A DNA stretch of 64,000 bases from Kiritimatiellia bacterium (GTDB lineage: Bacteria > Verrucomicrobiota > Kiritimatiellia > RFP12 > DVOR01), in the NCBI GenBank assembly GCA_031553315.1, contig JAVBLT010000007.1:104576-168575 (forward strand), read 5' to 3'. Positions 129-26,208 of this stretch are shown here, one piece after another. The notes under the pieces were generated by a model. It ran no database searches. It saw nothing but the letters and a program-made list of their open reading frames with translations, and had not been told where the DNA came from. Position 1 is the stretch's first letter, and every line of letters begins with the position of its first letter. The position numbers and the translations under genes are program-made.

Positions 129-1943
<1,815 letters not shown>

Positions 1944-1945
1944 CC

Positions 1946-3127
1946 ATGAAACTCATTGCAGACGATATCGCCGCTTCCATTCAAAATTCCTCCTGGATCC
2001 GCCGCATGTTCGAAGCCGGCATCGAGCTCAAAAAGCAGCTCGGCCCCGAAAACGTCTTCGATTTCAGCCTCGGCAATCCCGACGTGGCCCCCCCCGCCAA
2101 AGCCAAGGCCTCCCTGGAGCGCATCGCCGAGCGCGCCGTGCAGCCTCTCGGCCTGGGGTATATGCCCAACGCCGGCCTTCCAGCGCTCCGCGAAGCGCTG
2201 GCCAAAAAGCTCACCCGCGAACAGGAAGCGCCGGTGGAAGCCAAGCATGTGGTCGTCTCCTGCGGCGCCGCGGGAGCCCTCACCAGCTTCTTCCGCGCCA
2301 CCCTCGAACCCGGCGACGAAGTCCTCGTTTCCGCCCCCTACTTCGTGGAATACGGCTCCTACTGCGGCCATTTCGGCGGAAAACTCGTCGCCGTGCCCTC
2401 CAAAAAACCCGATTTCGACCTCGATGTGGAGGCCCTCGCCGCCGCGATCACCGACAAGACCCGCGTGATCCTCGTCAACTCTCCCAACAATCCCACCGGC
2501 TGCATCTACCCCGAGGCTTCGCTTCGCGCCCTCGCCGCCGCCATCGAAAAGGCCAACGCCGGCCGCGAGCGCCCCATTTTCCTCCTCAGCGACGAGCCCT
2601 ACCGCCTCTTCGCGTTCGACGGCGCCGCCGTGCCCTCCATCCTGCCGCTTTCGCCCTTCGCCGTGGTGCTCGGCTCCTTCTCCAAGAGCCTCTCCCTCGC
2701 CGGCGAACGCATCGGTTACCTCGTGATCTCCCCGGCCATGCCCCGGGGCGAACAGCTCATCGGCGCGGTGACCCTCACCACCCGCACCCTGGGCTTCGTC
2801 AACGCCCCCGTCATCGGCCAGCTCCTTGCGCTCGACCTGCTCGAAGAACAGGTCGACCTCGCCGTTTACGCCGCCCGCCGCCGCCTCATGGCCCAGGTTC
2901 TGACCGAAGCGGGCATCGCCTTCACCCTCCCCCGCGGCGCCTTCTACTTTTTCCCCGAAGCGCCGGGGGGCGACGACCTGGCCTTCTCCCAAAAGCTCCT
3001 GGCCCAGGGCATTCTCGCCGTTCCCGGCCGCGGTTTCGGCATGTCGGGCTACATCCGCCTCTGCTGCGCGGTCGACGAATCCATCATCCGCCGCTCCGCC
3101 GAAGCCTTCAAGCGAGCCATGCAGTAA
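1946..3127 (+). CDS. PLP-dependent aminotransferase class I/II (aspartate/alanine aminotransferase-like)
   Basis: ATG 2 nt after lepA stop; SFSKSLSLAGERIGY PLP-lysine region, NSPNNPTG, 393 aa; the longer upstream start in the track is an Arg/Pro-rich shadow extension. Confidence 0.8.
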   Translation: MKLIADDIAASIQNSSWIRRMFEAGIELKKQLGPENVFDFSLGNPDVAPPAKAKASLERIAERAVQPLGLGYMPNAGLPALREALAKKLTREQEAPVEAKHVVVSCGAAGALTSFFRATLEPGDEVLVSAPYFVEYGSYCGHFGGKLVAVPSKKPDFDLDVEALAAAITDKTRVILVNSPNNPTGCIYPEASLRALAAAIEKANAGRERPIFLLSDEPYRLFAFDGAAVPSILPLSPFAVVLGSFSKSLSLAGERIGYLVISPAMPRGEQLIGAVTLTTRTLGFVNAPVIGQLLALDLLEEQVDLAVYAARRRLMAQVLTEAGIAFTLPRGAFYFFPEAPGGDDLAFSQKLLAQGILAVPGRGFGMSGYIRLCCAVDESIIRRSAEAFKRAMQ

Positions 3128-3152
3128 TGATTTAATCAGAAAGGTAAACATC

Positions 3153-3512
3153 ATGTCCAAGTCATTTGAAATCGAAGGAAGCATCCGTAAAATTTTTGAC
3201 GCGCAGTCGTTCCCCAGCGGCTTCACCAAGCGCGAATTCGTGGTCACGGAAGACGATGAACGCTACCCGCAGGATATCAAGTTCACCGTGACCAAAGAGC
3301 GCTGCGCCACCCTGGACAACTTCCGCGAAGGCCAGAAGGTCAAGGTCACCTTCTCCCTGCGCGGCAATGAATACAAGGAAAAATATTACGTGGATCTCAA
3401 CGCCTTCAAAGTGGAACAGCTCAACGACGACGGCGGCACCACCGAGTTTGACCCGCTGCCGCCCGGCGACGGCGTCGACATGATTCCCGAAGACGACCCC
3501 ATGCCCTTCTAA
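3153..3512 (+). CDS. DUF3127-like small OB-fold protein with acidic SSB-like C-terminal tail (…EDDPMPF)
   Basis: 119 aa, RBS-like aaggtaaaca upstream, KFTVTKERCATLDNFREGQKVKVTF core; function unknown. Confidence 0.55.
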   Translation: MSKSFEIEGSIRKIFDAQSFPSGFTKREFVVTEDDERYPQDIKFTVTKERCATLDNFREGQKVKVTFSLRGNEYKEKYYVDLNAFKVEQLNDDGGTTEFDPLPPGDGVDMIPEDDPMPF

Positions 3513-3524
3513 GGAAGCCTTGTC

Positions 3525-4397
3525 GTGGCCGAACCGCTCTCCGCCAGCCGCCTTCTCCGGGAATCCGCGCGGTACCTTGCCCGGCACAAGGTTCACGCCC
3601 CCGAAACCGTCAGCGAGCTCCTGCTGGCGCGCTTTCTGGATTGCCGCCGCATGGATCTGCTGCTGCGCCAGCAGGAACGCATGCCGGAGGCGGTGCTTGA
3701 AGCCATGCGCACAGGTTTGCGGCGCGTGGCGGGGGGCGAGCCGGTGCAGTATGTGCTCGGCAACTGGGATTTCCACGACATCACCCTCAAAGTCGATTCG
3801 CGCGCGCTCATTCCCCGCCCCGAAACGGAGCAGCTCGTGGAGCGGGTCTTGCGCTCGCCGGTCATCGCCGAGAGCAGACCCGTCACGATTATCGATGTGG
3901 GCACCGGCACGGGCGCCATCATTCTCGCCCTCGCCCACGCCCTGCGCGACCGCCCCGACACCGGTTTCCTCGCGGTCGACCTCTCGCCCGCCGCGCTCTC
4001 CCTCGCGCGCGAAAACGCCAGCGAGCTCGGCCTGATTGACCGCGTGGCCTTCATCAAAAGCAACGGCTGCGGCATCTTCGAGCCCGGCAGCATTGATCTC
4101 GTGGTCTCGAACCCGCCCTACATCGCCTCGGCGGCGGTCGATTCGCTCGAGCGCCACATCCGCGACCACGAACCGCGCATGGCGCTCGACGGCGGCCCCG
4201 ACGGTCTCGCCGTGCTCCGCCAGATCGTGCTCGATGCCGCGCTCATTCTCCGCCCCGGAGGCCGGATCTACTTTGAAATCGGCGACGACCAGGGCCCGGC
4301 CATGAGCCGCATGCTTGAATCCGCCGGCTTTTCGGGCGTGACGATTCACGCCGACGATGCCGGCAAAACCCGTTTCGCCGAGGGCGCCATCCAATGA
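3525..4397 (+). CDS. prmC: release factor glutamine N5-methyltransferase PrmC/HemK
   Basis: GTG start; SAM motif IDVGTGTGAI and catalytic NPPY (VSNPPYI); 290 aa. Confidence 0.85.
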   Translation: MAEPLSASRLLRESARYLARHKVHAPETVSELLLARFLDCRRMDLLLRQQERMPEAVLEAMRTGLRRVAGGEPVQYVLGNWDFHDITLKVDSRALIPRPETEQLVERVLRSPVIAESRPVTIIDVGTGTGAIILALAHALRDRPDTGFLAVDLSPAALSLARENASELGLIDRVAFIKSNGCGIFEPGSIDLVVSNPPYIASAAVDSLERHIRDHEPRMALDGGPDGLAVLRQIVLDAALILRPGGRIYFEIGDDQGPAMSRMLESAGFSGVTIHADDAGKTRFAEGAIQ

Positions 4398-5254
4398 CCA
4401 AGCCTCCGTGGATCCGTGTGAAAATCGGCCAGGGCGACGCTTTCTCCGCCACGCGGGACCGCCTGCGCGGGTTTCATCTTCACTCCGTCTGCGAAGAGGC
4501 GCTCTGCCCCAACCGCGGCCGCTGCTGGGCCAACGGCCGCGCCACCATCCTCATTCTCGGCGACCGCTGCACCCGCGGCTGCCGCTTCTGCAATGTGGAC
4601 AAGCGCGCCGTGCTCCCGCCCGACCCCCTGGAGCCGCAACGCGTGGCCGAAGCCGTCGCCGAAACAGGCCTCAGGGAAATCGTCCTCACCTCCGTCACCC
4701 GCGACGATTTGCCCGACGGCGGCGCCGCGCTCTGGGCCGAGACCGTCGGCGCCATTCGCGCCCGCTGCCCCGGCGTGCTCGTCGAAGTGCTCATCCCCGA
4801 TTTCGGCGGCGACCCCGCCGCGCTCGACGCCTTCCTCGAAAGCCGCCCCGATGTGCTGGGCCACAACCTCGAGACCGTCCCCCGCCTCTACCCCGCCGTC
4901 CGCCCCGAAGCCGACTATTCCCGCTCCCTCGCCGTGCTCCGCCGCGCCGCCGAAAAGGGCCTCGTCGCCAAAACCAGCCTCATGCTCGGCCTCGGGGAAA
5001 CCCGCGCCGAAATCAGCGCCGCCATGCGCGCCGCCCGCGCCGCCGGCTGCTCCATCTTCTACGCCGGCCAATACCTCCAGCCCAGCGCGCGCCACCTCCC
5101 CGTGACCGACTATGTGCCCCCCGAAGCCTTCGAGGAGATCCGCCTCGAAGCCCTCGCCCTCGGTTTCGGGTTCGCGGCCTGCGCGCCCCTCGTGCGATCC
5201 TCCTACCACGAAGAAGGCCAATCCGCCTTCGTCCGCGCGCGAGGCCGGGCGTGA
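4394..5254 (+). CDS. lipA: lipoyl synthase
   Basis: ATGA overlap with prmC stop; auxiliary cluster CEEALCPNRGRC and radical-SAM CTRGCRFC motifs; 286 aa. Confidence 0.9.
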   Translation: MTKPPWIRVKIGQGDAFSATRDRLRGFHLHSVCEEALCPNRGRCWANGRATILILGDRCTRGCRFCNVDKRAVLPPDPLEPQRVAEAVAETGLREIVLTSVTRDDLPDGGAALWAETVGAIRARCPGVLVEVLIPDFGGDPAALDAFLESRPDVLGHNLETVPRLYPAVRPEADYSRSLAVLRRAAEKGLVAKTSLMLGLGETRAEISAAMRAARAAGCSIFYAGQYLQPSARHLPVTDYVPPEAFEEIRLEALALGFGFAACAPLVRSSYHEEGQSAFVRARGRA

Positions 5255-6051
5255 ACGCCCTGCGCCACTGGCAGCAGAGCAACCTGCCCGCATTGCGCCG
5301 CCTCGCCTTCGCGCCCACGCCCCACACCGGCGTCACCCTCATCGCCTACACCTTTCCCGCCCCCGAAAACGAAGACCTCTGGTTCGCCTGGCTCGAAGCC
5401 GCCCTCCTTCAAAGCTGGCGGCAGCTCGGCCTCATGAAAACGGTGATCGTGGCCCACGCCCCCTTCCCCGCCGTGACCGCCTTCCGCGCCCGCTGGCCCC
5501 ACGTGGAGCTGCAAATCGAACCCACCCTCGTGCCGGGCGACATCTGGTCGATGAGCCTCGACTGCATCGCGCGCCTCGCCGACCGTTTCACCACCCCCCA
5601 TTGCCTCATCGTGCAGGACGACGGTTTCCCCATCGCCTCCAACCTTGCCGACTTCCTCCGCTGGGACTACATCGGCGCCCCCCTCGTCCGCGACATCCCC
5701 CGCCAGCGCCTCGCCGACCTCATCGGCTTCTCCGTGGGCATCGGCGGTTTTTCCCTCCGAAGCCGGCGCCTCTGCCTCTCCGCCGCCCGCCACTGGCGCC
5801 TCGGCTGGCGCCGCCTCTACCGGCGCGGCTCCTGGTGGTTCAGCGAAGACATCTTCTACGCCGTGACCCTCCGCCTCGCCTCCCCCCTCTACCGCCTCCG
5901 CCACCGCTTCCCGCCCGCCCGCCAGGCCGCCGCCTTCGCGATCGACGCCACCCTCGGCCGGAGCCCCGCCATCCGCCCCTTCGGCTTCCACGGCGCCGAA
6001 ACCTTCACCCTCCTCCAGGAGAAAGGCTGGCAGCCCGATGCCCCCGAATAA
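5251..6051 (+). CDS. hypothetical protein, DUF5672-like (putative glycosyltransferase-like fold)
   Basis: GTGA overlap with lipA stop; conserved-looking blocks CLIVQDDGF, WDYIGAP, GIGGFSLRSRR, FGFHGAETF; start codon uncertain (GTG 5251 or internal). Confidence 0.45.
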   Translation: MNALRHWQQSNLPALRRLAFAPTPHTGVTLIAYTFPAPENEDLWFAWLEAALLQSWRQLGLMKTVIVAHAPFPAVTAFRARWPHVELQIEPTLVPGDIWSMSLDCIARLADRFTTPHCLIVQDDGFPIASNLADFLRWDYIGAPLVRDIPRQRLADLIGFSVGIGGFSLRSRRLCLSAARHWRLGWRRLYRRGSWWFSEDIFYAVTLRLASPLYRLRHRFPPARQAAAFAIDATLGRSPAIRPFGFHGAETFTLLQEKGWQPDAPE

Positions 6052-7948
6052 ACTCGCCCTCCCCGGCCTCCTCATCCTTTTTCCGACCCTCATCGTCTGC
6101 GCCGCCATGCTCGGCCTCCTCCTGGGCATTCCCGTGACCCGCTGGATCGTTCCCACGGTTTTGTTCGGTCTCGCGGTCTTTTCACTTCTCACCCCAGCCG
6201 CTCGCCGCCCCTTCGGCGCCTTCCTCGGCATCCTCCTCGCGCTCTACGCCGCCAACCTCCTCAACCTCTGCGACTACGGGTGCGATTCCCACAGCTACCA
6301 CACCCCCGCCGCCATTCTCCTCGCCCACGGCTGGAACCCCTTCGCCGACCCCCAGGCCGCGGCCTTCCTCGAAGCCCACACCCTCGACCCCGCCAGCCTG
6401 CGCCTCTTCCCCGCCGTCAGCCAGCCCCTCTTCATTCCCCTTCTCGGCGCCACCCTCTACGCCGCCACCGGCCAGCTCAACGCCGCCGGATTCTTCGACC
6501 CCTACTGGGTCGTCGCCGCCTTTGCCTTCATCTGGGCCATCCTCCCCCGTTTCGAGCCCCGCCTCGCCGGCCGCGCCCTCCCGCGCGCCGCCATCGCCCT
6601 CCTCCTCAGCTGCCACCCCATCGAGCTACTCGTGGGCTTTTCAGGCCCGGCCGACATCCCCCGCTTCACCTTCGCCGCCATCTTCCTCGCCTCCCTCGAG
6701 CTCTTCCGGCGAACCGGCAAAAAAACCGACTTTCAGCTCGCCCTCCTCTGCGCCGGCATCCTCCTCGCCGTGAAGTTCAACGCCCTGCTCATCATCGCCG
6801 CCGCCGCCCTCCTCTACGCCTGGCCCCTCCTCAAAACACACCGCGCCGGGCTTCTGCGCACGGCCCTTCCCCTCCTTCCTATCCTCCTCCTCCTTTGCGC
6901 CTACCCCTACCTCCACAACGCCCTCCGCTACCGCGCGCCGCTCTACCCCATCCAGACCAACGCCCACACCCCCCCCGCCCAATCCCTCACCCCCGATTTC
7001 CACGTGATGAATGCCGACGCCGCCTCCATGAACCGCCTCCAGCGCCTCGCCCATGCCTACCTCTCCCCCGCCCTCCTCCCCCGCCTCAACCCCCGCTCTC
7101 AAGTGCTCAACGCCTTCGACGGCGCCGGCCCCTTCTTCCGCCTCCTCCTCCTCCTCAGCCTCCCGCTCCTCACCGCCCACGGCACCCTCCGCCTCCCCGC
7201 CGCCGCCATCCTCCTCGCCACCCTCGCCATCCCCACCCTCTACGCCGGCTACGCCCGCTACGCCCTCGAATTCACCCTCCTGCCCACCCTCCTCGCCCTC
7301 AACGCCCTCACAGCCCCCCAGCCCCCCTGGCGCCGCTGCCTCGCCCTCGCCATCCTCCTGCTTAGCCTCGCCTTCCTCCTCACCCGCCTCACCCTCATCC
7401 AGGGCGGCCGCGCCATCCGCCGGCAATTGGCCGACACCGCCGCCAGCCTCGCCCTCGGCGACCCCCGCACCCAAATCGATGCCCGCGCGGCCATCGACCC
7501 CGCCGCCTACCCCCTGCGCCCCTTCCCCGTGCCCCGCCACGAATGGCCCCCCGAAATGACGCTCCTCTACGCCGCCCAGCTCCTCGACTCCTTCACCCCG
7601 CCCCGCCCCCTGCGCGCCGTCCACTCCAGCTTCCCGGCCGACATCGACTCCCCCGCCCCCCATTCCCCCCTCGTTCTGCGCTGGCCCTGGGAAGGCTTCG
7701 CCTTCATCCCCCCTCCCCCCCTCCGCCGCACCCTCCGCACCCTTGCCGACGGCGCCACCCCCGATGCCCCCGGCACCCTCGCCGCCTTCCGCCGCCTCCT
7801 CGACCCCACCCTCCTGCGCGCCACCCTCGCCTTCGCCGCCGACCAGCGCCCCCTTCAGCTCCGCCGCGCCTGGACCGCCCCCATCCTCGACCGACCCTTT
7901 CCCTCCATCCCCCCCGTCAATCACGACCGGGAAATGAACCCCGATTGA
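6038..7948 (+). CDS. polytopic integral membrane protein (about 12 TM segments then Pro/Ala-rich C-terminal domain; GT-C-like topology)
   Basis: ATG overlaps end of upstream gene by 14 nt; consecutive hydrophobic helices through about aa 450; low-complexity proline-rich tail; 636 aa. Confidence 0.5.
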   Translation: MPPNKLALPGLLILFPTLIVCAAMLGLLLGIPVTRWIVPTVLFGLAVFSLLTPAARRPFGAFLGILLALYAANLLNLCDYGCDSHSYHTPAAILLAHGWNPFADPQAAAFLEAHTLDPASLRLFPAVSQPLFIPLLGATLYAATGQLNAAGFFDPYWVVAAFAFIWAILPRFEPRLAGRALPRAAIALLLSCHPIELLVGFSGPADIPRFTFAAIFLASLELFRRTGKKTDFQLALLCAGILLAVKFNALLIIAAAALLYAWPLLKTHRAGLLRTALPLLPILLLLCAYPYLHNALRYRAPLYPIQTNAHTPPAQSLTPDFHVMNADAASMNRLQRLAHAYLSPALLPRLNPRSQVLNAFDGAGPFFRLLLLLSLPLLTAHGTLRLPAAAILLATLAIPTLYAGYARYALEFTLLPTLLALNALTAPQPPWRRCLALAILLLSLAFLLTRLTLIQGGRAIRRQLADTAASLALGDPRTQIDARAAIDPAAYPLRPFPVPRHEWPPEMTLLYAAQLLDSFTPPRPLRAVHSSFPADIDSPAPHSPLVLRWPWEGFAFIPPPPLRRTLRTLADGATPDAPGTLAAFRRLLDPTLLRATLAFAADQRPLQLRRAWTAPILDRPFPSIPPVNHDREMNPD

Positions 7949-8013
7949 TCGGCCTTTCCTTAAGTGGATTTGTTTTTTGACACCGGATTCGTTTTTTCGC
8001 TATACTTCTCTCC

Positions 8014-11000
8014 ATGCAGGTGCGCGTTTTCCATGTTTTTTACACGCCTTCCGAAGAGGTGTTGCTGTGGGGTGAATCTCTTTCGGGCGAAACGCCGGAA
8101 AAGGGGCGCCACCCCTATGCTTCCAAGCCGGAGGCGTTGAGAGAGGCAATCGGGGCGCTCTTCAAAAACTGGCAGCCGGCGCCGGTCTTTGAGCAAACCG
8201 CCATTGAAGCGGCTTTGCCGGTCGCGGCCGATGGCGCTCCCCTGCCCTCGCGGGCCTTTCTTTCCAAAGCGTTGACCACGCTGCCGCCCGTGGCGGGTTT
8301 TGACACATTCACGGTGCCGGCGCTCCGAATCAAGGGCGCGCCGCTTTTTCTGCTGTTGCAGGCGGCGCACCGCCTCGATCGCTTCGGGCGCACGCTGCTG
8401 CCGGGGACCGACCTGATCCGGCTGGCGGAAATTTACCGCTTCGCGGCGATGTGCCTGGCAGACGGCCACTTCATTCCCTCGCTCACCCTGGAGGGCGATG
8501 CCGCGTTTTCACGCTGGCGGTCGGTGCTCACGCTCCCCGAGCGCGAACGGCTGGCCGGGCTTGCGAACCGCGTGCCGCCGGTGGTTTTTCCGGCGGCCGC
8601 CGACCGCACGCCCGCGCGGCGCCTGCGGCTCATGCACGCCTTCTTCGAAGACCTTTCCGATGCGCTCGTGCGCGTGAACGCCGTCACGCCGCTCAGCCGG
8701 GGCCACGCGGCGAAAAGTCATTTTTACAGCGCACACGACGCCTGGCTCGCCTCGCTCCGAAGCGATTCGCCCCAGCTGCGCTGGCCGCTCGAAACCGCTT
8801 CCCCCGAACAGGCCCAGACCGACCGCGCCCAGCTCGCCGACCTCGCCCGGACAGTCGCGCGCTGGCAGGCTCCGGCCACCGACAACGCGCTCGGCGCCAC
8901 GCTCCAGATCGAGCTGCGCCCGCCGCCAGGCGAAACGGGCGAATGGCACATCTCGGCCTCGCTCCCCGGCGCACCGGAAGGGGCGCTGCTCACACGCACG
9001 GGCCTCACGCTCCTCGGCCAGGCCTCGCTCCTCTGCCCGCAGCTCACGCCCGACCGCCCGCTCACCCCCGCCGATGCGCATACCTTCATCCAAAGCGCCG
9101 CGCCGGTGCTGCGCAGCGCGGGGTTCACGGTCGTGCTGCCGCCCGGCCTGGAACAAAACGACCTCGATTCGCCGCTGGAGCTCGTGGCCGGCGCGGCGCT
9201 CAAAGACCCCGATCAGAAAGCGCCGTTTGCGCCCGACACACCGGTCACGATCACCTGGCAGCCGCGCATCAACGGCATTGCGGTTTCACCCGCGGAGCTT
9301 CAGGCAATCGTCGACGCCGCCTCGCCGATCATCTACTTCCACGAACAATGGATCACAATCGACCTGAGCGCAGCCGCGGAAATGCTCCGCCACTGCCGCC
9401 AGGCGCCGGAAGAAGACGCCACGCTCGGCGCGACCCTTCGCGGAGCCTTCTCGGGGGGTTCCGCCATCCACACGGGGCTCATCCGGAGCGAAACCGTCGC
9501 CGAAGGCCCGCTCCGCCGCTTCCTCGCCACGCTCACCGGCGCCGCCGTGCCCGACCTCCCGCCCCTCCCCGCCGGGCTCAACGCCGAGCTGCGCCCCTAC
9601 CAGCTGCGCGGCTACGCCTGGCTCAGCCACCTCGCCGCCTGGCAATTCGGCGCATGCCTGGCCGACGACATGGGCCTTGGCAAAACCCTCCAAACCCTCG
9701 CCTTCCTCCTCGCCTGCCGCCAACGCGGCGAAACCCGCCCCGCGCTCATCGTAGCCCCCCTCTCCGTGCTCGCCAACTGGCTGCATGAAATCGAGACCTT
9801 CACCCCCGCCCTCCGCGCGCGCCTCCACCACGGCGCCGGGCGCGTCATCGGCAACACCTTTGCGGAAACCGCCGCCGAGACCCACATCGTGCTCACCGAT
9901 TATGCGCTCGTCTACCGCGATTTCGACGCGCTCCGCCGCGTGCCCTGGTCCACCCTCGTGCTCGACGAAGCCCAAAACATCAAAAACCCCTCCACCCGTC
10001 AATCCCGCGCCGCCCGCGCCCTCACCGCCGACCACCGCATCGCCCTCACCGGCACCCCCGTGGAAAACGCCCCCGGCGACCTCTGGTCGATTATGGATTT
10101 CCTCAACCCCGGCCTCTTGGGCGACTACGCCGCCTTCCGCAAACGCCTCCCCCCCGCACCCACCGGAACAGCCATCGACCCCACAGCCGGCAAACGCCTG
10201 CGCCGCCTGACAGCCCCCTTCATTCTGCGCCGGCTCAAAACCGATCCCGCCGTCATCGCCGACCTCCCGGAAAAAACCGTCAACCGAATCTACTGCCCCC
10301 TCGGCGCCGCGCAAAGCCAGGCCTACGACACCGCCCTGCGCGCCTTCTCCGCCGACCTTTCCAGCCTCGAGGGCTCCAGCCGCCGCGGCCGCATCCTCGC
10401 CGTGCTCACCCGCCTCAAGCAAATCTGCGACCACCCCGCCCTGCCCGGCCTCACCGCCGATCAAATCGACGACGCCATCCTCCAGCAGGTCTCCGGAAAA
10501 ATCAGCCGCCTCGAAGACATGCTCCGCGAGGTCGACGCCAACGGCGAAAGCGCCCTCATTTTCACCCAGTTTGCCCGCATGGGCGCACTCCTGCGCCAAC
10601 GCCTCGCCGAAACCTTCGCCCGCGACATCCCCTTCCTCCACGGCGGCCTCACCGCCGCCGCCCGCCAGCGCGAGATCGACGCCTTCAACCAGGCCGCCCT
10701 CCCCTCTTTCTTCGTGCTTTCACTCAAAGCCGGCGGCCTTGGCCTCAACCTCACCCGCGCCAGCCACGTCTTCCACTTCGACCGCTGGTGGAACCCCGCC
10801 GTCGAAAACCAGGCCACCGACCGCGCCCACCGCATCGGCCAGAAACGCCAGGTCTTCGTCCACACCTTCATCTGCCGCGGCACCCTCGAAGACCGCATCG
10901 ACGCGCTTCTTCTCGGCAAACAGCACCTCGCCGACGCCCTCGTCGACGCCAACGCCAACACCTTCCTCACCCGCCTGCCCGACGACGAACTCATCGCCAT

Positions 11001-11028
11001 GCTCCAGCGCACCTGCGAAGACGAATAA
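8014..11028 (+). CDS. SNF2-family helicase/ATPase with about 500-aa N-terminal SNF2-associated-like domain (YwqA/RapA-like)
   Basis: Helicase motifs GLGKT (I), LVLDEAQNIKN (II), ALTGTPVEN (III), C-terminal HELICc block QATDRAHRIGQ; 1004 aa. Confidence 0.85.
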   Translation: MQVRVFHVFYTPSEEVLLWGESLSGETPEKGRHPYASKPEALREAIGALFKNWQPAPVFEQTAIEAALPVAADGAPLPSRAFLSKALTTLPPVAGFDTFTVPALRIKGAPLFLLLQAAHRLDRFGRTLLPGTDLIRLAEIYRFAAMCLADGHFIPSLTLEGDAAFSRWRSVLTLPERERLAGLANRVPPVVFPAAADRTPARRLRLMHAFFEDLSDALVRVNAVTPLSRGHAAKSHFYSAHDAWLASLRSDSPQLRWPLETASPEQAQTDRAQLADLARTVARWQAPATDNALGATLQIELRPPPGETGEWHISASLPGAPEGALLTRTGLTLLGQASLLCPQLTPDRPLTPADAHTFIQSAAPVLRSAGFTVVLPPGLEQNDLDSPLELVAGAALKDPDQKAPFAPDTPVTITWQPRINGIAVSPAELQAIVDAASPIIYFHEQWITIDLSAAAEMLRHCRQAPEEDATLGATLRGAFSGGSAIHTGLIRSETVAEGPLRRFLATLTGAAVPDLPPLPAGLNAELRPYQLRGYAWLSHLAAWQFGACLADDMGLGKTLQTLAFLLACRQRGETRPALIVAPLSVLANWLHEIETFTPALRARLHHGAGRVIGNTFAETAAETHIVLTDYALVYRDFDALRRVPWSTLVLDEAQNIKNPSTRQSRAARALTADHRIALTGTPVENAPGDLWSIMDFLNPGLLGDYAAFRKRLPPAPTGTAIDPTAGKRLRRLTAPFILRRLKTDPAVIADLPEKTVNRIYCPLGAAQSQAYDTALRAFSADLSSLEGSSRRGRILAVLTRLKQICDHPALPGLTADQIDDAILQQVSGKISRLEDMLREVDANGESALIFTQFARMGALLRQRLAETFARDIPFLHGGLTAAARQREIDAFNQAALPSFFVLSLKAGGLGLNLTRASHVFHFDRWWNPAVENQATDRAHRIGQKRQVFVHTFICRGTLEDRIDALLLGKQHLADALVDANANTFLTRLPDDELIAMLQRTCEDE

Positions 11029-11118
11029 ATGGCATTCCGCCTGCGATTCACATGAATAACGCTTGCACGCGTGCCGGTTTCTGTGTATAGTGAAGGCATT
11101 GTAGAAAGGGGGTTGTTC

Positions 11119-11550
11119 ATGATTGACATGCATTGGGTCTGGCTGATTGTGGGCATTGCGCTCATTGGGCTTGAGATCATCGTTCCGGGGTTCGTCATCA
11201 TGTTCTTCGGTCTGGCCGCCGTGGCGGTGGGTGTATTGTGCTGGTTTTTTCCCGCCATGCCCGAAACCATTCAGCTCCTGCTCTTTTCGATCCTCTCCTT
11301 CCTGATGGTCTGGATCATGCGGAAAATGTTCAAAAAAACCTTCTCGGGCAAAAACGGCGCGCCCGAAGAGGTCGACGACGTTTTTACCGGCCAGCACGCC
11401 ACCGTGGCGCGCGCCATCGAGCCCGGGGCGCCCGGAAAAGTCACCTTCAACGGCACCGACTGGCAGGCCCAATCCGACCAGGCGCTGGCCGTGGGAACCC
11501 GCGTGCGCATCGTGCGCCGCGACAACATCACCCTCACCGTTCAGCCCTAG
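11119..11550 (+). CDS. NfeD-family membrane protein (stomatin operon partner)
   Basis: Two N-terminal TM helices then OB-fold tail (GKVTFNGTDWQAQSD…VRIVRRDNITLTV); RBS aaaggggg; immediately upstream of SPFH gene. Confidence 0.75.
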   Translation: MIDMHWVWLIVGIALIGLEIIVPGFVIMFFGLAAVAVGVLCWFFPAMPETIQLLLFSILSFLMVWIMRKMFKKTFSGKNGAPEEVDDVFTGQHATVARAIEPGAPGKVTFNGTDWQAQSDQALAVGTRVRIVRRDNITLTVQP

Positions 11551-11565
11551 AAAGGAACCGGCCCT

Positions 11566-12480
11566 ATGTTCATGTACTTCGTCATCGGCCTCGTCGTTTT
11601 CGCCGCCATCGTGCTGTTCAACGCCATCGTCATCGTCCCCCAGCGCTCGGCCTACATTGTGGAGCACCTCGGCAAATACCAGAAAACCCTCGAAGCGGGC
11701 TTCCACCTGATTATTCCCATGGTCGACCGCATCAGCTACCGCCGATCCCTCAAGGAGGTGGCGATCGACGTGCCCCCGCAGCACTGCATCACGAAGGACA
11801 ACATCACCGTGGATGTCGACGGCATCCTCTACCTTCAGGTCATGGATCCCGTGAAAGCCTCCTACGGCATCGACAATTACCTCTTCGCCTGCGTGCAGCT
11901 CGCCCAGACCACCATGCGCAGCGAAATCGGCAAGCTCGAGCTCGACCGAACCTTCGAAGAACGCGGCGCCATCAACAACGAAATCTGCGACGCGGTCGAC
12001 AAGGCCTCCGACCCTTGGGGCATCAAAATCACCCGCTATGAAATCAAATCCATCACGCCCCCCCGCACGATTCAAGACGCGATGGAAAAGCAAATGCGCG
12101 CCGAGCGCGAAAAACGCGCCATGATCGCCGAATCCGAAGGCGAACGCCAGGCCCGCATCAACCGCGCCGAAGGCGAGAAGCAGGAAGCGATCGCCAAATC
12201 CGAAGGCGAACGCGCCCGCCGCATCAATGAAGCCGACGGCAAGGCGAAGGAAATCACCCTCATCGCCACGGCCACCGCGCAGGGTTTGCACACCATCGCC
12301 GAAGCCATTACCGACAAAGGCGGCCAGGAGGCCGTGAACCTCCGCCTCGCGGAGCAATACATCGGCGAATTCGGCCGCCTCGCCAAAACCGGCAACACCA
12401 TGATCATCCCCAGCGACCTCTCCAACGTGGCGGGGTTCATCAAAGCCGCGAGCTCCGTGCTTGCCGCCCCGACCAAATAA
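11566..12480 (+). CDS. SPFH/band-7 (stomatin-like, QmcA-like) protein
   Basis: N-terminal TM helix, SPFH core (IVPQRSAYIVEHLGKY…TKDNITVDVDGILYLQV), C-terminal coiled-coil EGE-repeats; 304 aa. Confidence 0.85.
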   Translation: MFMYFVIGLVVFAAIVLFNAIVIVPQRSAYIVEHLGKYQKTLEAGFHLIIPMVDRISYRRSLKEVAIDVPPQHCITKDNITVDVDGILYLQVMDPVKASYGIDNYLFACVQLAQTTMRSEIGKLELDRTFEERGAINNEICDAVDKASDPWGIKITRYEIKSITPPRTIQDAMEKQMRAEREKRAMIAESEGERQARINRAEGEKQEAIAKSEGERARRINEADGKAKEITLIATATAQGLHTIAEAITDKGGQEAVNLRLAEQYIGEFGRLAKTGNTMIIPSDLSNVAGFIKAASSVLAAPTK

Positions 12481-12501
12481 TCCGGGTTGAATCATCGACG
12501 C

Positions 12502-12538
12502 AGGCGGCGGAGCATGGCTCCTGCCGCCTTGTTTTTTT
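12502..12538 (+). terminator. rho-independent terminator after SPFH gene
   Basis: GC-rich dyad AGGCGGCGGAGC…GCTCCTGCCGCCT (one bulge) followed by T7 run 12532-12538. Confidence 0.6.
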
Positions 12539-12552
12539 GAAAGGGTAAAAAA

Positions 12553-13020
12553 ATGAAGCTACTTCGCTGGATTGGCTATTCGATTCTTTTCATCATCGGT
12601 TTGTATTATGGCAGCGTGGCGCTCGGCTACATGCTCAACCCCCTCTTCCCCGCCACCTGCACGATTGACCGCGATTTCCGCGAGGTTCAACAAAAAATGG
12701 AAGAAATGGGAAAAGAACCGCAACATGAATTCATGAGAGGGCTGGTCGGTAATCAGACCAAATGGTTCAAGGTTCTGGAGGCTACCCCTGAAAAATCGCT
12801 TCAGGTTGAATTTGAAACGGTCTACAACATCGGCTATGGCTGGGAAACCGTCGGCATTACAATTTCATCCGAAGGCACGGCAAAAACAAATCTGGTCGTG
12901 GACTACTCCGAGTTTGGTTTTTATCCCTTTTTTCCGCCGTTCGCGGGCTACAACCCCGGATTCATCCGCGAGCGGCAATTGCGTAACCGGCTGAAAGAGA
13001 TTCTTTCGAAACGCACATAA
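12553..13020 (+). CDS. hypothetical membrane-anchored protein (lower GC than flanks)
   Basis: ATG with A-rich RBS; N-terminal TM helix; no recognisable family; 155 aa. Confidence 0.4.
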   Translation: MKLLRWIGYSILFIIGLYYGSVALGYMLNPLFPATCTIDRDFREVQQKMEEMGKEPQHEFMRGLVGNQTKWFKVLEATPEKSLQVEFETVYNIGYGWETVGITISSEGTAKTNLVVDYSEFGFYPFFPPFAGYNPGFIRERQLRNRLKEILSKRT

Positions 13021-13049
13021 TTTGCACTTGTTTTAAATGTGCAAATTAT
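13017..13049. promoter_or_regulatory. perfect 11-bp inverted repeat ATAATTTGCAC-N11-GTGCAAATTAT upstream of dinJ (candidate antitoxin operator and/or terminator of upstream gene)
   Basis: Arms 13017-13027 and 13039-13049; followed by tattatag (-10-like) and RBS aaggag at 13071-13076. Confidence 0.45.
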
Positions 13050-13078
13050 CTATTATAGGTGTGTTTTAATAAGGAGTC

Positions 13079-13360
13079 ATGATGTCTGCAACAACCACCA
13101 ATTTGACCATTCGCGTTGAAACCTCGCTGAAAAAGGAAGCGGATATGCTCTTTTCAGATTTGGGGATGAACCTCTCGATCGCTTTCAATATCTTTCTGCG
13201 CCAGGCGCTCCGCGTTCAGGGATTACCCTTTGAAGTGATGCGCGATACGCCCAACAAAGAAACGCTGGCCGCCATGCGTGAAGCCAAACGAATTGCCCGC
13301 GATCCCGATGTGAAAGGCTTCACGGATATGGAGAGCCTTTTGAACGATCTGAACGCATGA
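13079..13360 (+). CDS. dinJ: type II antitoxin, RelB/DinJ family
   Basis: 93 aa, ribbon-helix-helix-like N-terminus (TNLTIRVETSLKKEADMLF), stop overlaps start of toxin gene (ATGA). Confidence 0.7.
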   Translation: MMSATTTNLTIRVETSLKKEADMLFSDLGMNLSIAFNIFLRQALRVQGLPFEVMRDTPNKETLAAMREAKRIARDPDVKGFTDMESLLNDLNA

Positions 13361-13632
13361 CCTACGAAATCAAGCGGACGGGGCTTTTCAAAAAAGATTA
13401 CGAGAAAATGTTTAAACGCGGTGCGAACATGGCGCTCTTGCATGAGGCCATTGACCTGTTGCGACAAGGGTTGCCGCTTCCCGAACGCTTCCGTGACCAC
13501 ACGCTTTCAGGGGATTACGCCGGATACCGCGAATGCCATATCAACCCCGATTGGCTGTTGATTTACTACATTGAGACCGAGGTGCTTGTTTTAACGCTGC
13601 CCCGAACGGGAACCCATAGCGACCTTTTTTAA
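13357..13632 (+). CDS. yafQ: type II toxin, YafQ/RelE family mRNA interferase
   Basis: 91 aa; KKDYEKMFKRG…HTLSGDYAGYRECHINPDWLLIYYI matches YafQ family signature. Confidence 0.75.
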   Translation: MTYEIKRTGLFKKDYEKMFKRGANMALLHEAIDLLRQGLPLPERFRDHTLSGDYAGYRECHINPDWLLIYYIETEVLVLTLPRTGTHSDLF

Positions 13633-13656
13633 TGAATAGCGCCTTTGCATGAAAAT

Positions 13657-15612
13657 TTATTTCATGCTCGGCAGCACGATGCCGCGCATGATCACGCGCT
13701 GGCAGGCGAGGAAGACTGCGGCGGTGGGCACCGAGATCATCACGAAGCCGGCCATGACGACCCAGGGGCGGTCGGAGAATTGCTGGCTCATCTGGTACAT
13801 CCACACGGCGAGCGTCCAGTGCGATTGTTTTTGGCACACCAGAAGCGCCCATTCCCAGCCGCTGTAGGCGGAGATGAAGGCGTTGAGGGCGTTGACGGCG
13901 AGGATGGGAGTGGTCATGGGGAGGGTGATCTTGCGGAAGATCTGCCACTCGCCGGCGCCGTCGATGATGGCGGCTTCGTAGAGCTCGCGGGGGAGACCGT
14001 CGAAAAAGCCTTTGAGGATGAAGATGGAGAGGCCGTTGGCCACGGTGGGCAGCACGAGGGCGGCGAAGGTGTTGAGCAACCCGAGCTGACGGATTAAAAT
14101 GAAGCCGGGAATGGCGGTGACGGCCGCAGGGAAGGCCATGGTGGCCAGAAGGAAGAGGAGGATGCTCTCGGTGCGCCGCAGGCGGAAGCGCGAAAGGGCG
14201 TAGGCGGCGAGGGGGTTGACGGTGAGGGTGGCGCAGATGGTGAGGATCACGAGGATGAGGGTGTTGGTGAAGGCGCGGCCGCGAAGGAAGAGGTAATCGC
14301 AGACGTTGCGGTAATTGGCGGTCATGTCGGAGGCGAGCATTCGCAGGCCGCAGTTGGCGTAGGTCACGGCAAAGGCTTCGGCAAAGGGAAAGCGCGCCTG
14401 CTCAAAGGATGCAAGCTGCCAGCCGTAGGCTTCATTGAGCCCGGCAATGCTGTAGCGGGCGCGGAGGAAGGCCTGCCAATCGGCCTCGGGGGAATGGGGG
14501 GTGAGGGCGGCGAGAGGCACGCGGGAAACAAAGCCGCGCTCAAGGGCGGTGGCGGGGCGGGCGCTCAATGGAATCGCTTCAAGCGCGGCGGGAGCGGGGT
14601 CTCCGGTGAGGGCGGCGTAGTTTTCGGGGGTGCGGCAGGTTTCATGGAGGTATTCATGCCATGCCCGGGTCAGCCCGGGGGTGACGCTCAGGGTGAGGAG
14701 CCGCTTCGGCCAGGCGGTTTGCACGAAGGCGCCCCAGTGGGGCGAATCGGGCGCGGGAAAATGGGCGGGGGCGGGGCCGAGGCCGTTTTTCTTGAGGTAG
14801 GTTTCCCAGAGGGGGCGGATGAGGAAGGGGCGGGTGCGGGTGTAGGGGGCGTACCCGGAAACAAATTCGACAAAGCGCCCCCATTCGGCGCTTTCGGGGG
14901 GCACGGGCCATGTGGCGGAACCGCTCTCTTTTTTCCAGGCGCGCTCGGCGCCGGGATGGAAGGCGAGGTTGCGGTAGGCGGTTTTGAAGGCCTGATAGAG
15001 GTCGCTTTTGGGGTCGCCCTGGGGCCAGTCCCAATCGGGGTGGTGCATGGGCATGCGTTGCTGGGCGCGCATGCGGATGCCGAAGAAGGAGCTGTAGCGG
15101 ATCTTCCAGGCGACGTTGAGGCGGTCGAGGGTTCCAAAGGCGCGCTGGACGAAGGGCCCCACGTCGCGCTCATCGAAGAGGCAGATGGAGTTGCTCACGC
15201 TGTAGGTGGCGTTGAAGGCGGCGTAATCGGCGGCCATGCGCTGCCAGCGGGCGCGGGTGGAGGGATCGCGCAGACCCTCGAGCCAGGGTCGGGCGAAAGC
15301 GTCGATACCGGCGGTATCGCGCGCGACCACGGTCCAGCTGCCCCAATGGGCGGGGGCGGCGGGGTAGACTTCGCGGGGAAACATCGGGTGCACGGAGGCC
15401 ATCACGCGCATAAACCGGTCTTCGCCGTTGAAGAGGGAGCGGAGCACGGGAGAGTAGCGGTGATAATCGAAGCGGTTGGTGAGCGAACCGGTGAACATCA
15501 TGAGGAAGGGCCAGATCATGGTGAAGGCGCCGAGGGTGAGCACGGCGTAGACGAGCGCGATGATGAACCGCGCTTTGAATGATTTTCGCTCGATGGGAAG
15601 GATGACGGGCAT
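13657..15612 (-). CDS. ABC transporter permease (CUT1 MalG-like core) with about 380-aa periplasmic insertion after TM1
   Basis: C-terminal EAAIIDGAGEWQIFRKITLPMTTPIL EAA-loop signature; 651 aa; stop abuts upstream gene start (3-nt gap). Confidence 0.75.
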   Translation of the reverse strand: MPVILPIERKSFKARFIIALVYAVLTLGAFTMIWPFLMMFTGSLTNRFDYHRYSPVLRSLFNGEDRFMRVMASVHPMFPREVYPAAPAHWGSWTVVARDTAGIDAFARPWLEGLRDPSTRARWQRMAADYAAFNATYSVSNSICLFDERDVGPFVQRAFGTLDRLNVAWKIRYSSFFGIRMRAQQRMPMHHPDWDWPQGDPKSDLYQAFKTAYRNLAFHPGAERAWKKESGSATWPVPPESAEWGRFVEFVSGYAPYTRTRPFLIRPLWETYLKKNGLGPAPAHFPAPDSPHWGAFVQTAWPKRLLTLSVTPGLTRAWHEYLHETCRTPENYAALTGDPAPAALEAIPLSARPATALERGFVSRVPLAALTPHSPEADWQAFLRARYSIAGLNEAYGWQLASFEQARFPFAEAFAVTYANCGLRMLASDMTANYRNVCDYLFLRGRAFTNTLILVILTICATLTVNPLAAYALSRFRLRRTESILLFLLATMAFPAAVTAIPGFILIRQLGLLNTFAALVLPTVANGLSIFILKGFFDGLPRELYEAAIIDGAGEWQIFRKITLPMTTPILAVNALNAFISAYSGWEWALLVCQKQSHWTLAVWMYQMSQQFSDRPWVVMAGFVMISVPTAAVFLACQRVIMRGIVLPSMK

Positions 15613-24999: not shown

Positions 25000-26208
25000 A
25001 TGACCCAAAAACCCGTCAAACGCGTCGCCTTCCTCACCGCCGGCGGCCTCGCCCCCTGCCTCAGCTCGGCCCTGGGCTTCCTCATCGCCGAGTATACCCG
25101 CGCGGCGCCGGAAATCGAGCTCATCGGCTACGTCAACGGCTACAAAGGCCTCCTCGCCGGCGAATACCTCGCGGTGACCCCCGAAGTGCGCCGGCACGCC
25201 CTCTGGCTCACCGAGCACGGCGGAAGCCCCATCGGCAACAGCCGCGTGAAGCTCACCAACGTGAAAGACTGCGTGAAGCGCGGCCTCGTGAAAGAAGGCG
25301 AAGACCCCCAGAAAGTGGCCGCGGATCAGCTCGTCAAAGACGGGGTCGACGTGCTCCACACCATCGGCGGAGACGACACGAACACCGCCGCGGCCGACCT
25401 CGCCGCCTTCCTCGCCGCCAACGGCTACGACCTCACCGTCGTCGGCCTGCCCAAAACCATTGATAACGACGTCTACCCCATCGCCCAGAGCCTCGGCGCC
25501 TGGACCGCCGCCGAAGAAGGCGCCAGATACTTCGCCAACGTCGTCAAAGAAAACACCGCCAACCCCCGCATGCTCATCATCCACGAAGTGATGGGCCGCC
25601 ACTGCGGCTGGCTCACCGCCCAGACCGCCATCGAATACCGCAAGCTCCTCGACCAGACCCATTACCTGCCCGAATTCGGCCTCACCCGCGAGCGCGAAGA
25701 CCTCCACGCCGTCTACATCCCCGAAACCGAGTTCAACGTCAACGCCGAAGCCGCCCGCCTCGTCAAAATCATGAACGAGAACGACAGCGTCAACATCTTC
25801 ATCTCCGAAGGCGCCTGCGTCGACACCATCATCGAAGAAATGGAAGCCCGCGGCGAAGAAGTCCCGCGCGACGCCTTCGGCCACCCCCGCCTCGACAAAG
25901 TCAACGTCGGCGCCTGGTTCGCCCGGCAATTCGCCGACATGCTCCGCGCCGAAAAAGTCCTCATCCAGAAGAGCGGCTACTACAGCCGCGCCGCCCGCCC
26001 CAACCCGCGCGACCTCGAGCTCATCCGCACCTGCGCCGAAAAAGCCGTCGAATGCGCCCTCGCCCGCCAGGGCGGCGTCGTCGGCCACGACGAAGACCGC
26101 GGCGGCCAGCTCCGCGCCTGCGAATTTCCCCGCATCAAAGGCGGCAAGCCCTTCAACCCGGCCAACGCCGAGTTTCAGAGCCTCCTCGCCGCCATCGGCC
26201 AGAAATAA
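25000..26208 (+). CDS. pfp: pyrophosphate-dependent 6-phosphofructokinase
   Basis: RBS aggagag; LTAGGLAPCLSS, HTIGGDDTN, GLPKTIDNDV PFK motifs; 402 aa. Confidence 0.85.
   Translation: MTQKPVKRVAFLTAGGLAPCLSSALGFLIAEYTRAAPEIELIGYVNGYKGLLAGEYLAVTPEVRRHALWLTEHGGSPIGNSRVKLTNVKDCVKRGLVKEGEDPQKVAADQLVKDGVDVLHTIGGDDTNTAAADLAAFLAANGYDLTVVGLPKTIDNDVYPIAQSLGAWTAAEEGARYFANVVKENTANPRMLIIHEVMGRHCGWLTAQTAIEYRKLLDQTHYLPEFGLTREREDLHAVYIPETEFNVNAEAARLVKIMNENDSVNIFISEGACVDTIIEEMEARGEEVPRDAFGHPRLDKVNVGAWFARQFADMLRAEKVLIQKSGYYSRAARPNPRDLELIRTCAEKAVECALARQGGVVGHDEDRGGQLRACEFPRIKGGKPFNPANAEFQSLLAAIGQK

Follow-up and report, generated by a model that had tools for sequence, protein, structure and literature searches.

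A probable GT-C-fold glycosyltransferase gene and a DUF5672 gene as lineage-specific neighbors downstream of lipA in a Kiritimatiellia bacterium

In several described systems, namely, GtrA/GtrB/GtrC, CsbB-GtcA-YfhO and GacI/J-GacK-GacL, the gene for a GT-C-type (glycosyltransferase C) membrane protein lies beside a gene for a cytoplasmic enzyme, and in such three-component systems the classic partner of the GT-C protein is a GT2 glycosyltransferase that makes the donor (PMC8035078, PMC11127046). A comparable juxtaposition occurs in a Kiritimatiellia bacterium, within a stretch of 64,000 nucleotides (assembly GCA_031553315.1, contig JAVBLT010000007.1, positions 104,576 to 168,575 of the forward strand; hereinafter, the window), where two genes on the + strand follow lipA, the lipoyl synthase gene: gene A (5251-6051), which encodes a 266 amino acid (aa) protein of the DUF5672 family, and gene B (6038-7948), which encodes a 636 aa protein consisting of a membrane domain with a predicted GT-C fold and a proline-rich tail. 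Unlike the Gtr-like systems, this pair includes a DUF5672 protein instead of a GT2, lacks a flippase gene and is not conserved as a pair. The explanation of the locus as a whole that we favor, with a probability of roughly 0.55, is that it contains genes for a probable envelope-glycan GT-C enzyme and a DUF5672 protein that are neighbors only in this lineage and have no functional tie to lipA.

In an alignment-based AlphaFold model of gene B (the single-sequence version was unusable, with a predicted local distance difference test score, pLDDT, of 45), the membrane domain (residues 1-470; 6038-7447, + strand) has the GT-C glycosyltransferase fold, with approximately 13 transmembrane (TM) helices that, according to both hydropathy and the model, span residues 7-470, in keeping with the roughly 8-13 helices expected for a polytopic GT-C membrane domain. 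The best structural matches of the model are active transferases, and the fold is shared with ArnT (GT83, undecaprenyl-phosphate-L-Ara4N:lipid A transferase; PDB 5f15), ALG12, AftA and Pmt4, with sequence identity of only 7-13 %. Thus, the GT-C-like character proposed in the original prediction is upheld at the level of the modeled fold; the accompanying description of 12 TM helices in the N-terminal half is not, given that the helices, about 13 in number, take up approximately 470 of the 636 residues. By its modeled fold, gene B is a member of the GT-C superfamily, and it belongs to no named sequence family: there was no match in Pfam (at E≤1) or NCBIfam, a search of NCBIfam and PHROGs was empty for gene A as well, and a search of PDB sequences with the gene B profile A2 retrieved nothing meaningful.

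Homologs of gene B are numerous and divergent. A word-indexed search recovered gene B itself and one relative, and five proteins when a profile was used; an exhaustive HMMER scan yielded 266 representatives at E≤1e-3, 23-34 % identical to gene B and aligned over residues ~5-460 only. Across the whole library covered by that scan, the sole relative above about 31 % identity was the protein from locus L001, a metagenomic relative of the window, and no relatives were found between about 31 % and 70 %. The family is found mainly in bacteria of the Planctomycetes-Verrucomicrobia-Chlamydiae (PVC) group, namely, Kiritimatiellae, Lentisphaerae, Victivallales, Verrucomicrobia and Planctomycetes. When the family is compared with the Pfam models PMT_2 and TMEM260-like, some relatives match, whereas gene B and most of the family score nothing: among 121 relatives, 12 reached PMT_2 (PF13231) at E≤0.1, mostly weakly, and one each reached TMEM260-like (PF11028) and DUF2142. 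An hhalign comparison of the family with a PMT_2 protein gave a probability of 97.4 %. The family nevertheless carries a motif set of its own, D-x4-H-x-P...GWNP, KF-x-G, SPY-x-TNW...PFYP and GYARY.

Sixty sequences of the gene B family have six invariant residues in common, D83, W99, P101, D206, K246 and P290. The first of these, D83 (6284-6286, + strand), is located in DYGCDSHSYHTPAAILLAHGWNP, in the loop that follows helix 3, and is retained in at least 90 % of a further 61 sequences; D206 (6653-6655, + strand) shows no variation in alignments A2 and A4 and is present in at least 90 % of the sequences in A3, and K246 (6773-6775, + strand) is the invariant lysine of the family alignments. A criterion for GT-C enzymes is an acidic residue, as part of a DxD motif or a modified form thereof, in the first extracytoplasmic loop (PMC8035078), and in gene B the first predicted extracytoplasmic loop harbors the conserved D83. 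The sequence suggests a topology in which the N-terminus is inside and, after approximately 13 helices, both D83 and the C-terminal tail would be periplasmic. By analogy with the characterized enzymes, D83 is a candidate catalytic residue and K246 may bind the phosphate of a lipid-linked donor, as in ArnT. The activity, donor and acceptor that we infer for gene B are also a matter of analogy. Most likely, the protein is an integral-membrane glycosyltransferase that, in the manner of ArnT and PMT, would take a sugar from a polyprenyl-phosphate-sugar donor and transfer it at the periplasmic face, with Asp83 in the first periplasmic loop as the catalytic residue and with an envelope glycan, lipid or protein as the acceptor.

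The C-terminal tail of gene B (residues 471-636, 166 aa; 7448-7948, + strand) is predicted to be periplasmic and contains 18 % proline. It was originally taken for a large soluble domain but appears mostly disordered, with pLDDT <50 over residues 486-581 and a single confident terminal helix at residues 590-613. In this respect, gene B differs from ArnT and other GT-C enzymes, in which the C-terminal part is a folded periplasmic domain. The tail is 61 % identical to that of the L001 protein and, judging by the alignments, is specific to the lineage because the alignments with remote relatives are limited to the membrane domain.

The assignment of gene A is more straightforward. The protein matches the DUF5672 model (PF18922) with 66.7 bits against a gathering cut-off of 24.4 (E=2.5e-18), so its original designation as DUF5672-like is borne out. 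The match spans residues 113-247 only, and the subfamily of gene A has ~110 extra N-terminal residues outside the Pfam model; in all other respects, gene A is, by sequence, an ordinary and full member of DUF5672 that contains all conserved motifs and shows nothing different in kind. We identified 126 homologs of gene A. In an alignment of 55 relatives (A1), D104, Q122, D124, G125, G165, G166, F167, R170, D200 and H247 are invariant, and in the wide family alignment that includes distant metagenomic members (A7), D124, D139, G165-S171 and D200 still are. The motifs that characterize the family as a whole (Q-x-D-G, NGGFSLRS, ED and FGFHG) are all represented in gene A by D124, D139, G165-S171, D200 and H247. 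The two blocks that had been singled out as conserved-looking, DDGF (residues 123-126) and GIGGFSLR (residues 163-170), indeed contain the family-invariant D124, G125, G165, G166, F167 and R170; in particular, the GGFSLR motif (residues 165-170; 5743-5760, + strand) is family-invariant. The other motif, QDDGF (residues 122-126; 5614-5628, + strand), resembles the DxD signature of glycosyltransferases but is not a canonical version of it because only the second aspartate of the DD pair is conserved family-wide: in these alignments, D124 is invariant throughout, Q122 and G125 do not vary in A1 and Q122 hardly does in A7, and D123 is kept in the close subfamily only, so that the wide-family consensus is Q-x-D-G.

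The suggestion that DUF5672 is glycosyltransferase-like found no support in our comparisons. No cross-match to another Pfam family, including every Pfam GT-A family, was detected in 55 + 43 DUF5672 members, and searches of PDB sequences with the profiles A1 and A7 retrieved no meaningful relative. A relationship to GT8 or GT2, suggested by the spacing of the motifs, was also considered and set aside after hhalign comparisons with Escherichia coli GT8 proteins (WaaJ/WaaO) and two GT2 sets gave probabilities of ≤1 %, a weak negative given the small template alignments. In the literature on DUF5672 (PF18922), we found no characterized member, only a stray mention outside the main text. Hydropathy analysis detects no hydrophobic or TM segment in gene A, and because such segments are lacking, the protein is predicted to be cytoplasmic.

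By contrast with the sequence comparisons, the genomic neighborhoods of DUF5672 point to glycan metabolism. Relatives of gene A are surrounded in L046 by genes for GT4, GT-D-like and GT17 enzymes, LpxB and LpxI, in L047 by GT4 genes and genes for sugar-nucleotide epimerases/dehydratases, and in L049 by GT2 and epimerase genes together with a second DUF5672 copy. Because DUF5672 recurs in such lipopolysaccharide and polysaccharide gene clusters, its members, and gene A with them, are probably cytoplasmic enzymes of glycan biosynthesis, and gene A would act in a glycan pathway of this bacterium. Several DUF5672 genes, moreover, lie near large multi-TM proteins. In L004-L007, a YfhO-like protein (a weak PF09586 match, below the cut-off) is encoded two genes upstream of DUF5672. 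In the GC-rich metagenomic cluster L129 (976-8148), a WcaJ-like sugar transferase (976-3198) is followed by a 409 aa protein and then by a protein with 13 TM helices (4444-5847) that matches the gene B GT-C profile weakly (E=1e-8); next comes a 760 aa fusion in which DUF5672 is joined to a SEC-C motif, to TPR repeats and to a C-terminal domain without assignment. Most of the large multi-TM neighbors in the metagenomic loci have no Pfam match, one is a transporter of the MFS family and one is a weak MatE match; no consistent partner emerges among them. The recurrent proximity is a weak hint of association.

Some further features of the DUF5672 family were observed in the course of this comparison. 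The domain is duplicated in tandem in proteins of 459-466 aa (P0006-P0015; L047, 7001-8386), and in L044 two adjacent DUF5672 genes overlap (7001-7789 and 7786-8589). A 264 aa protein without a Pfam match is encoded next to DUF5672 in glycan clusters (L004, 7199-7993; L049, 4144-4938), and its two representatives are 44 % identical to each other.

The neighborhoods of the distant relatives of gene B were examined in 36 loci, found via a five-sequence alignment subset, that encode members of the family sharing 24-30 % identity with gene B and come from metagenome-assembled genomes (MAGs) of Kiritimatiellae, Lentisphaerae, Victivallales, Pirellulales and Verrucomicrobia. A gene for a SurA-like peptidyl-prolyl isomerase is located directly upstream in 27 of these loci, and in 26 of the 36 it is accompanied by lnt and a TPR/BamD-like region downstream, usually at a distance of 0.7-1.9 kb (for example, in L032, SurA-like 5925-7802, GT-C 7806-9917, lnt and TPR 10627-15435). 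As an observation in its own right, this SurA-GT-C-lnt neighborhood is fixed in the MAGs of Kiritimatiellae and Lentisphaerae (L009-L035 and L040). The arrangement is reminiscent of the Lnt-Ppm1 fusion with Pmt in mycobacteria and suggests glycosylation connected with the envelope or with lipoproteins. In another 7-8 of the 36 loci (L008, L030, L036, L037, L038, L039, L042 and, weakly, L041; for example, ~9740-10695 in L039), a GT2 gene abuts that of the gene B relative; its product carries two TM helices at the C-terminus and is similar to AglJ, dolichyl-phosphate hexose transferase, PpgS and ArnC. Judging from these similarities, the two genes look like a classical pair of donor synthase and GT-C enzyme, the distant relatives of gene B being coupled with a GtrB/ArnC-like GT2 in the same way as in the Gtr-like systems. 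For gene B itself, these neighbors of its relatives would point, indirectly, to a polyprenyl-phosphate-linked sugar as the donor.

Does the adjacency of genes A and B reflect a comparable pairing? It had been proposed that the two proteins may form a lipid- or glycan-modifying pair co-expressed with lipoyl synthase, with conservation of the pair in related genomes as a test. Apart from the window, the pair was found in L001 alone, where gene A is 77 % identical and gene B is 70 % identical to the respective genes of the window and where the order lipA-A-B is retained together with the same overlaps. Because L001 is so closely related, the shared order is uninformative. Elsewhere, the two families part ways. 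DUF5672 genes are absent within 8 kb in all 36 loci with distant gene B relatives, and no clear gene B relative was found in about 90 DUF5672 loci (80 metagenomic loci and 8-12 others, the eight being contexts retrieved by exact look-up), the only candidate being the weak match in L129. In contrast to the relatives of gene B, many DUF5672 relatives have identities of 35-63 %, and the closest of them outside the lineage (L003, 63 %) has a different gene in place of lipA upstream and lacks gene B downstream. We conclude from these comparisons that the A-B pairing is specific to the lineage and is not an evolutionarily conserved, dedicated pair. For the same reason, the idea of a meaningful functional link to lipA was rejected: the link is kept only in the closest relative, L001, is absent in the next one, L003, and looks like operon packing in a string of housekeeping genes.

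The alternative that survives best, although we consider it unlikely, is that genes A and B constitute a dedicated transmembrane glycosylation module in which DUF5672 loads a sugar onto undecaprenyl phosphate, replacing the GT2 of the GtrB/ArnC type, and gene B transfers this sugar in the periplasm. Such a replacement would fit the finding that, in other lineages, the position adjoining the GT-C family is occupied by a GT2 that resembles polyprenyl-phosphate glycosyltransferases, whereas no GtrB-like GT2 is encoded in the 64-kb window; it would also fit the 14-nucleotide (nt) overlap kept in L001, and the vicinity of DUF5672 to a large multi-TM protein in two other lineages (YfhO-like in L004 and the weak gene B profile match in L129). 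There is, furthermore, a precedent in GacI/GacJ, where a cytoplasmic GT-A enzyme without TM helices works with a small membrane partner (PMC8035078). However, neither such a small membrane partner nor a flippase is encoded in the operon; no flippase gene of the GtrA, Wzx or MATE type was found at the locus, where the neighbors are prmC, lipA and genes for an SNF2 helicase, NfeD and SPFH proteins. DUF5672 has neither detectable similarity to GT2 nor a membrane anchor and, as described above, the two families do not accompany each other beyond the closest relative. In the explanation that we prefer, that of lineage-specific neighbors, the lipid-linked donor for gene B and the flippase would probably be encoded elsewhere in the genome and DUF5672 would not be the supplier.

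Several considerations weigh against this preferred explanation. D83 and the tail are assigned to the periplasm on the basis of hydropathy and the positive-inside rule, that is, the distribution of arginine and lysine; the test of pairing covered adjacency within 8 kb; and the conserved overlap of the two genes, along with the lack of a GtrB-like GT2 in the window, leaves room for a functional coupling within the lineage. With regard to gene A, profile methods revealed no similarity of DUF5672 to any glycosyltransferase, and the literature contains no biochemical data on either DUF5672 or the gene B family.

The lack of glycosyltransferase similarity by any sequence method also lends some credence to the quite unlikely possibility that the adjacency is meaningless and DUF5672 is not a glycosyltransferase at all but, for example, a modifying enzyme or a hydrolase packed into a compact operon. 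The absence of a family-wide canonical DxD, with D124 alone invariant, is compatible with this possibility, as are the housekeeping nature of the genes around the pair in the window and the location of some DUF5672 genes outside glycan clusters, as in L044, where the surroundings are housekeeping genes and the immediate neighbors are rpsB, tsf and pyrH. Against it stand the recurrence of DUF5672 in clusters rich in genes for glycosyltransferases and sugar-nucleotide enzymes, and the conserved D124, D139, E199/D200 and H247, which would suit a metal-dependent transferase. More doubtful still is the far-reaching proposition that DUF5672 represents an unrecognized class of cytoplasmic sugar-activating or glycan-priming enzymes that, as partners of GT-C proteins, can take the place of the GtrB/ArnC-type GT2 in a two-gene variant of transmembrane glycosylation in PVC bacteria.

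It appears highly improbable that gene B, despite its GT-C fold, transfers no sugar and is instead a non-catalytic scaffold, like the PIG-U subunit of the glycosylphosphatidylinositol transamidase, or an enzyme that acts on another lipid-linked substrate: the closest structural counterparts are active transferases, the loop-1 aspartate, the second aspartate and the lysine are strictly retained across very divergent sequences, and GT2 genes of the polyprenyl-phosphate glycosyltransferase type adjoin the distant relatives. Finally, the notion that one or both open reading frames (ORFs) arose by chance in GC-rich DNA (the region is ~70 % GC, and long spurious ORFs abound in the other frames) is negligible in view of the hundreds of homologs, the Pfam match, the high-confidence predicted fold, the G+C content of 0.90 at the third codon positions (GC3) of gene B and the ratios of nonsynonymous to synonymous substitution rates (dN/dS) well below 1. 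In the codon-level comparison with L001, gene A has a dN/dS of 0.17, compared to 0.38 for the membrane domain of gene B and 0.47 for its tail. The public gene calls include identical 266 aa and 636 aa products. Both ORFs are genuine genes, as attested by the homologs, the public calls, GC3 and dN/dS.

The two genes are embedded in an uninterrupted string of genes on the + strand that consists of lepA (129-1943), an aminotransferase gene (ending at 3127), the gene for a DUF3127 protein (3153-3512), prmC (3525-4397), lipA (4394-5254; Pfam Radical_SAM and LIAS_N), gene A, gene B and the gene for the SNF2 helicase (8014-11028), with the NfeD and SPFH genes next. The lipA gene, which overlaps prmC by 4 nt, is the third of four genes linked by short overlaps. 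The start codon of gene A is a GTG within the stop of lipA (GTGA), which results in another overlap of 4 nt, and the ATG of gene B is located 14 nt before the stop of gene A (overlap at 6038-6051, + strand; also 14 nt in L001), with the Shine-Dalgarno-like run GGAGAAAGG upstream. The originally described overlaps of 4 nt and 14 nt and the position of the two genes between lipA and the helicase thus agree with the ORF coordinates and with the public calls. Given the 14 nt overlap and the GGAGAAAGG run, translation of gene B is probably coupled to that of gene A, and the two genes would be co-transcribed at the end of the prmC-lipA-A-B housekeeping string.

A few other features of the window were recorded. 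The GC skew across gene B (6000-8000) is very strongly negative, at -0.45 to -0.50, probably due to a composition rich in leucine, alanine and proline with C-rich codons. Between 12500 and 13650, the GC content drops to 0.49-0.53, compared to 0.6-0.7 around, and this stretch contains three small ORFs on the + strand (12553-13020, 13079-13360 and 13357-13632), the first of which has no Pfam match; it may be a small foreign insertion. ARAGORN called a 95-nt tRNA-Gln at 26077-26171 (- strand), whereas an Rfam scan of the 64-kb window detected no tRNA or other RNA family at the gathering score; ARAGORN probably made a false-positive call here, in which case the window has no detectable structured RNA gene.

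The more striking claim, namely, that lipoyl synthase is linked to a new and conserved pair of enzymes, finds no confirmation, and neither the gene B family nor the placement of DUF5672 would surprise a glycobiologist. Uncharacterized GT-C and DUF genes are common. Nevertheless, the repeated placement of DUF5672, a widespread family, in glycan clusters provides a testable functional lead, and a PVC-specific GT-C family with a fixed SurA-X-Lnt neighborhood may merit a separate look. Gene B adds to the GT-C superfamily an unnamed family that is well supported by structural modeling, is found mostly in PVC bacteria and has no Pfam or NCBIfam model. In the Kiritimatiellae and their relatives, whose envelopes have received little study, this family would mark a step of periplasmic glycosylation.

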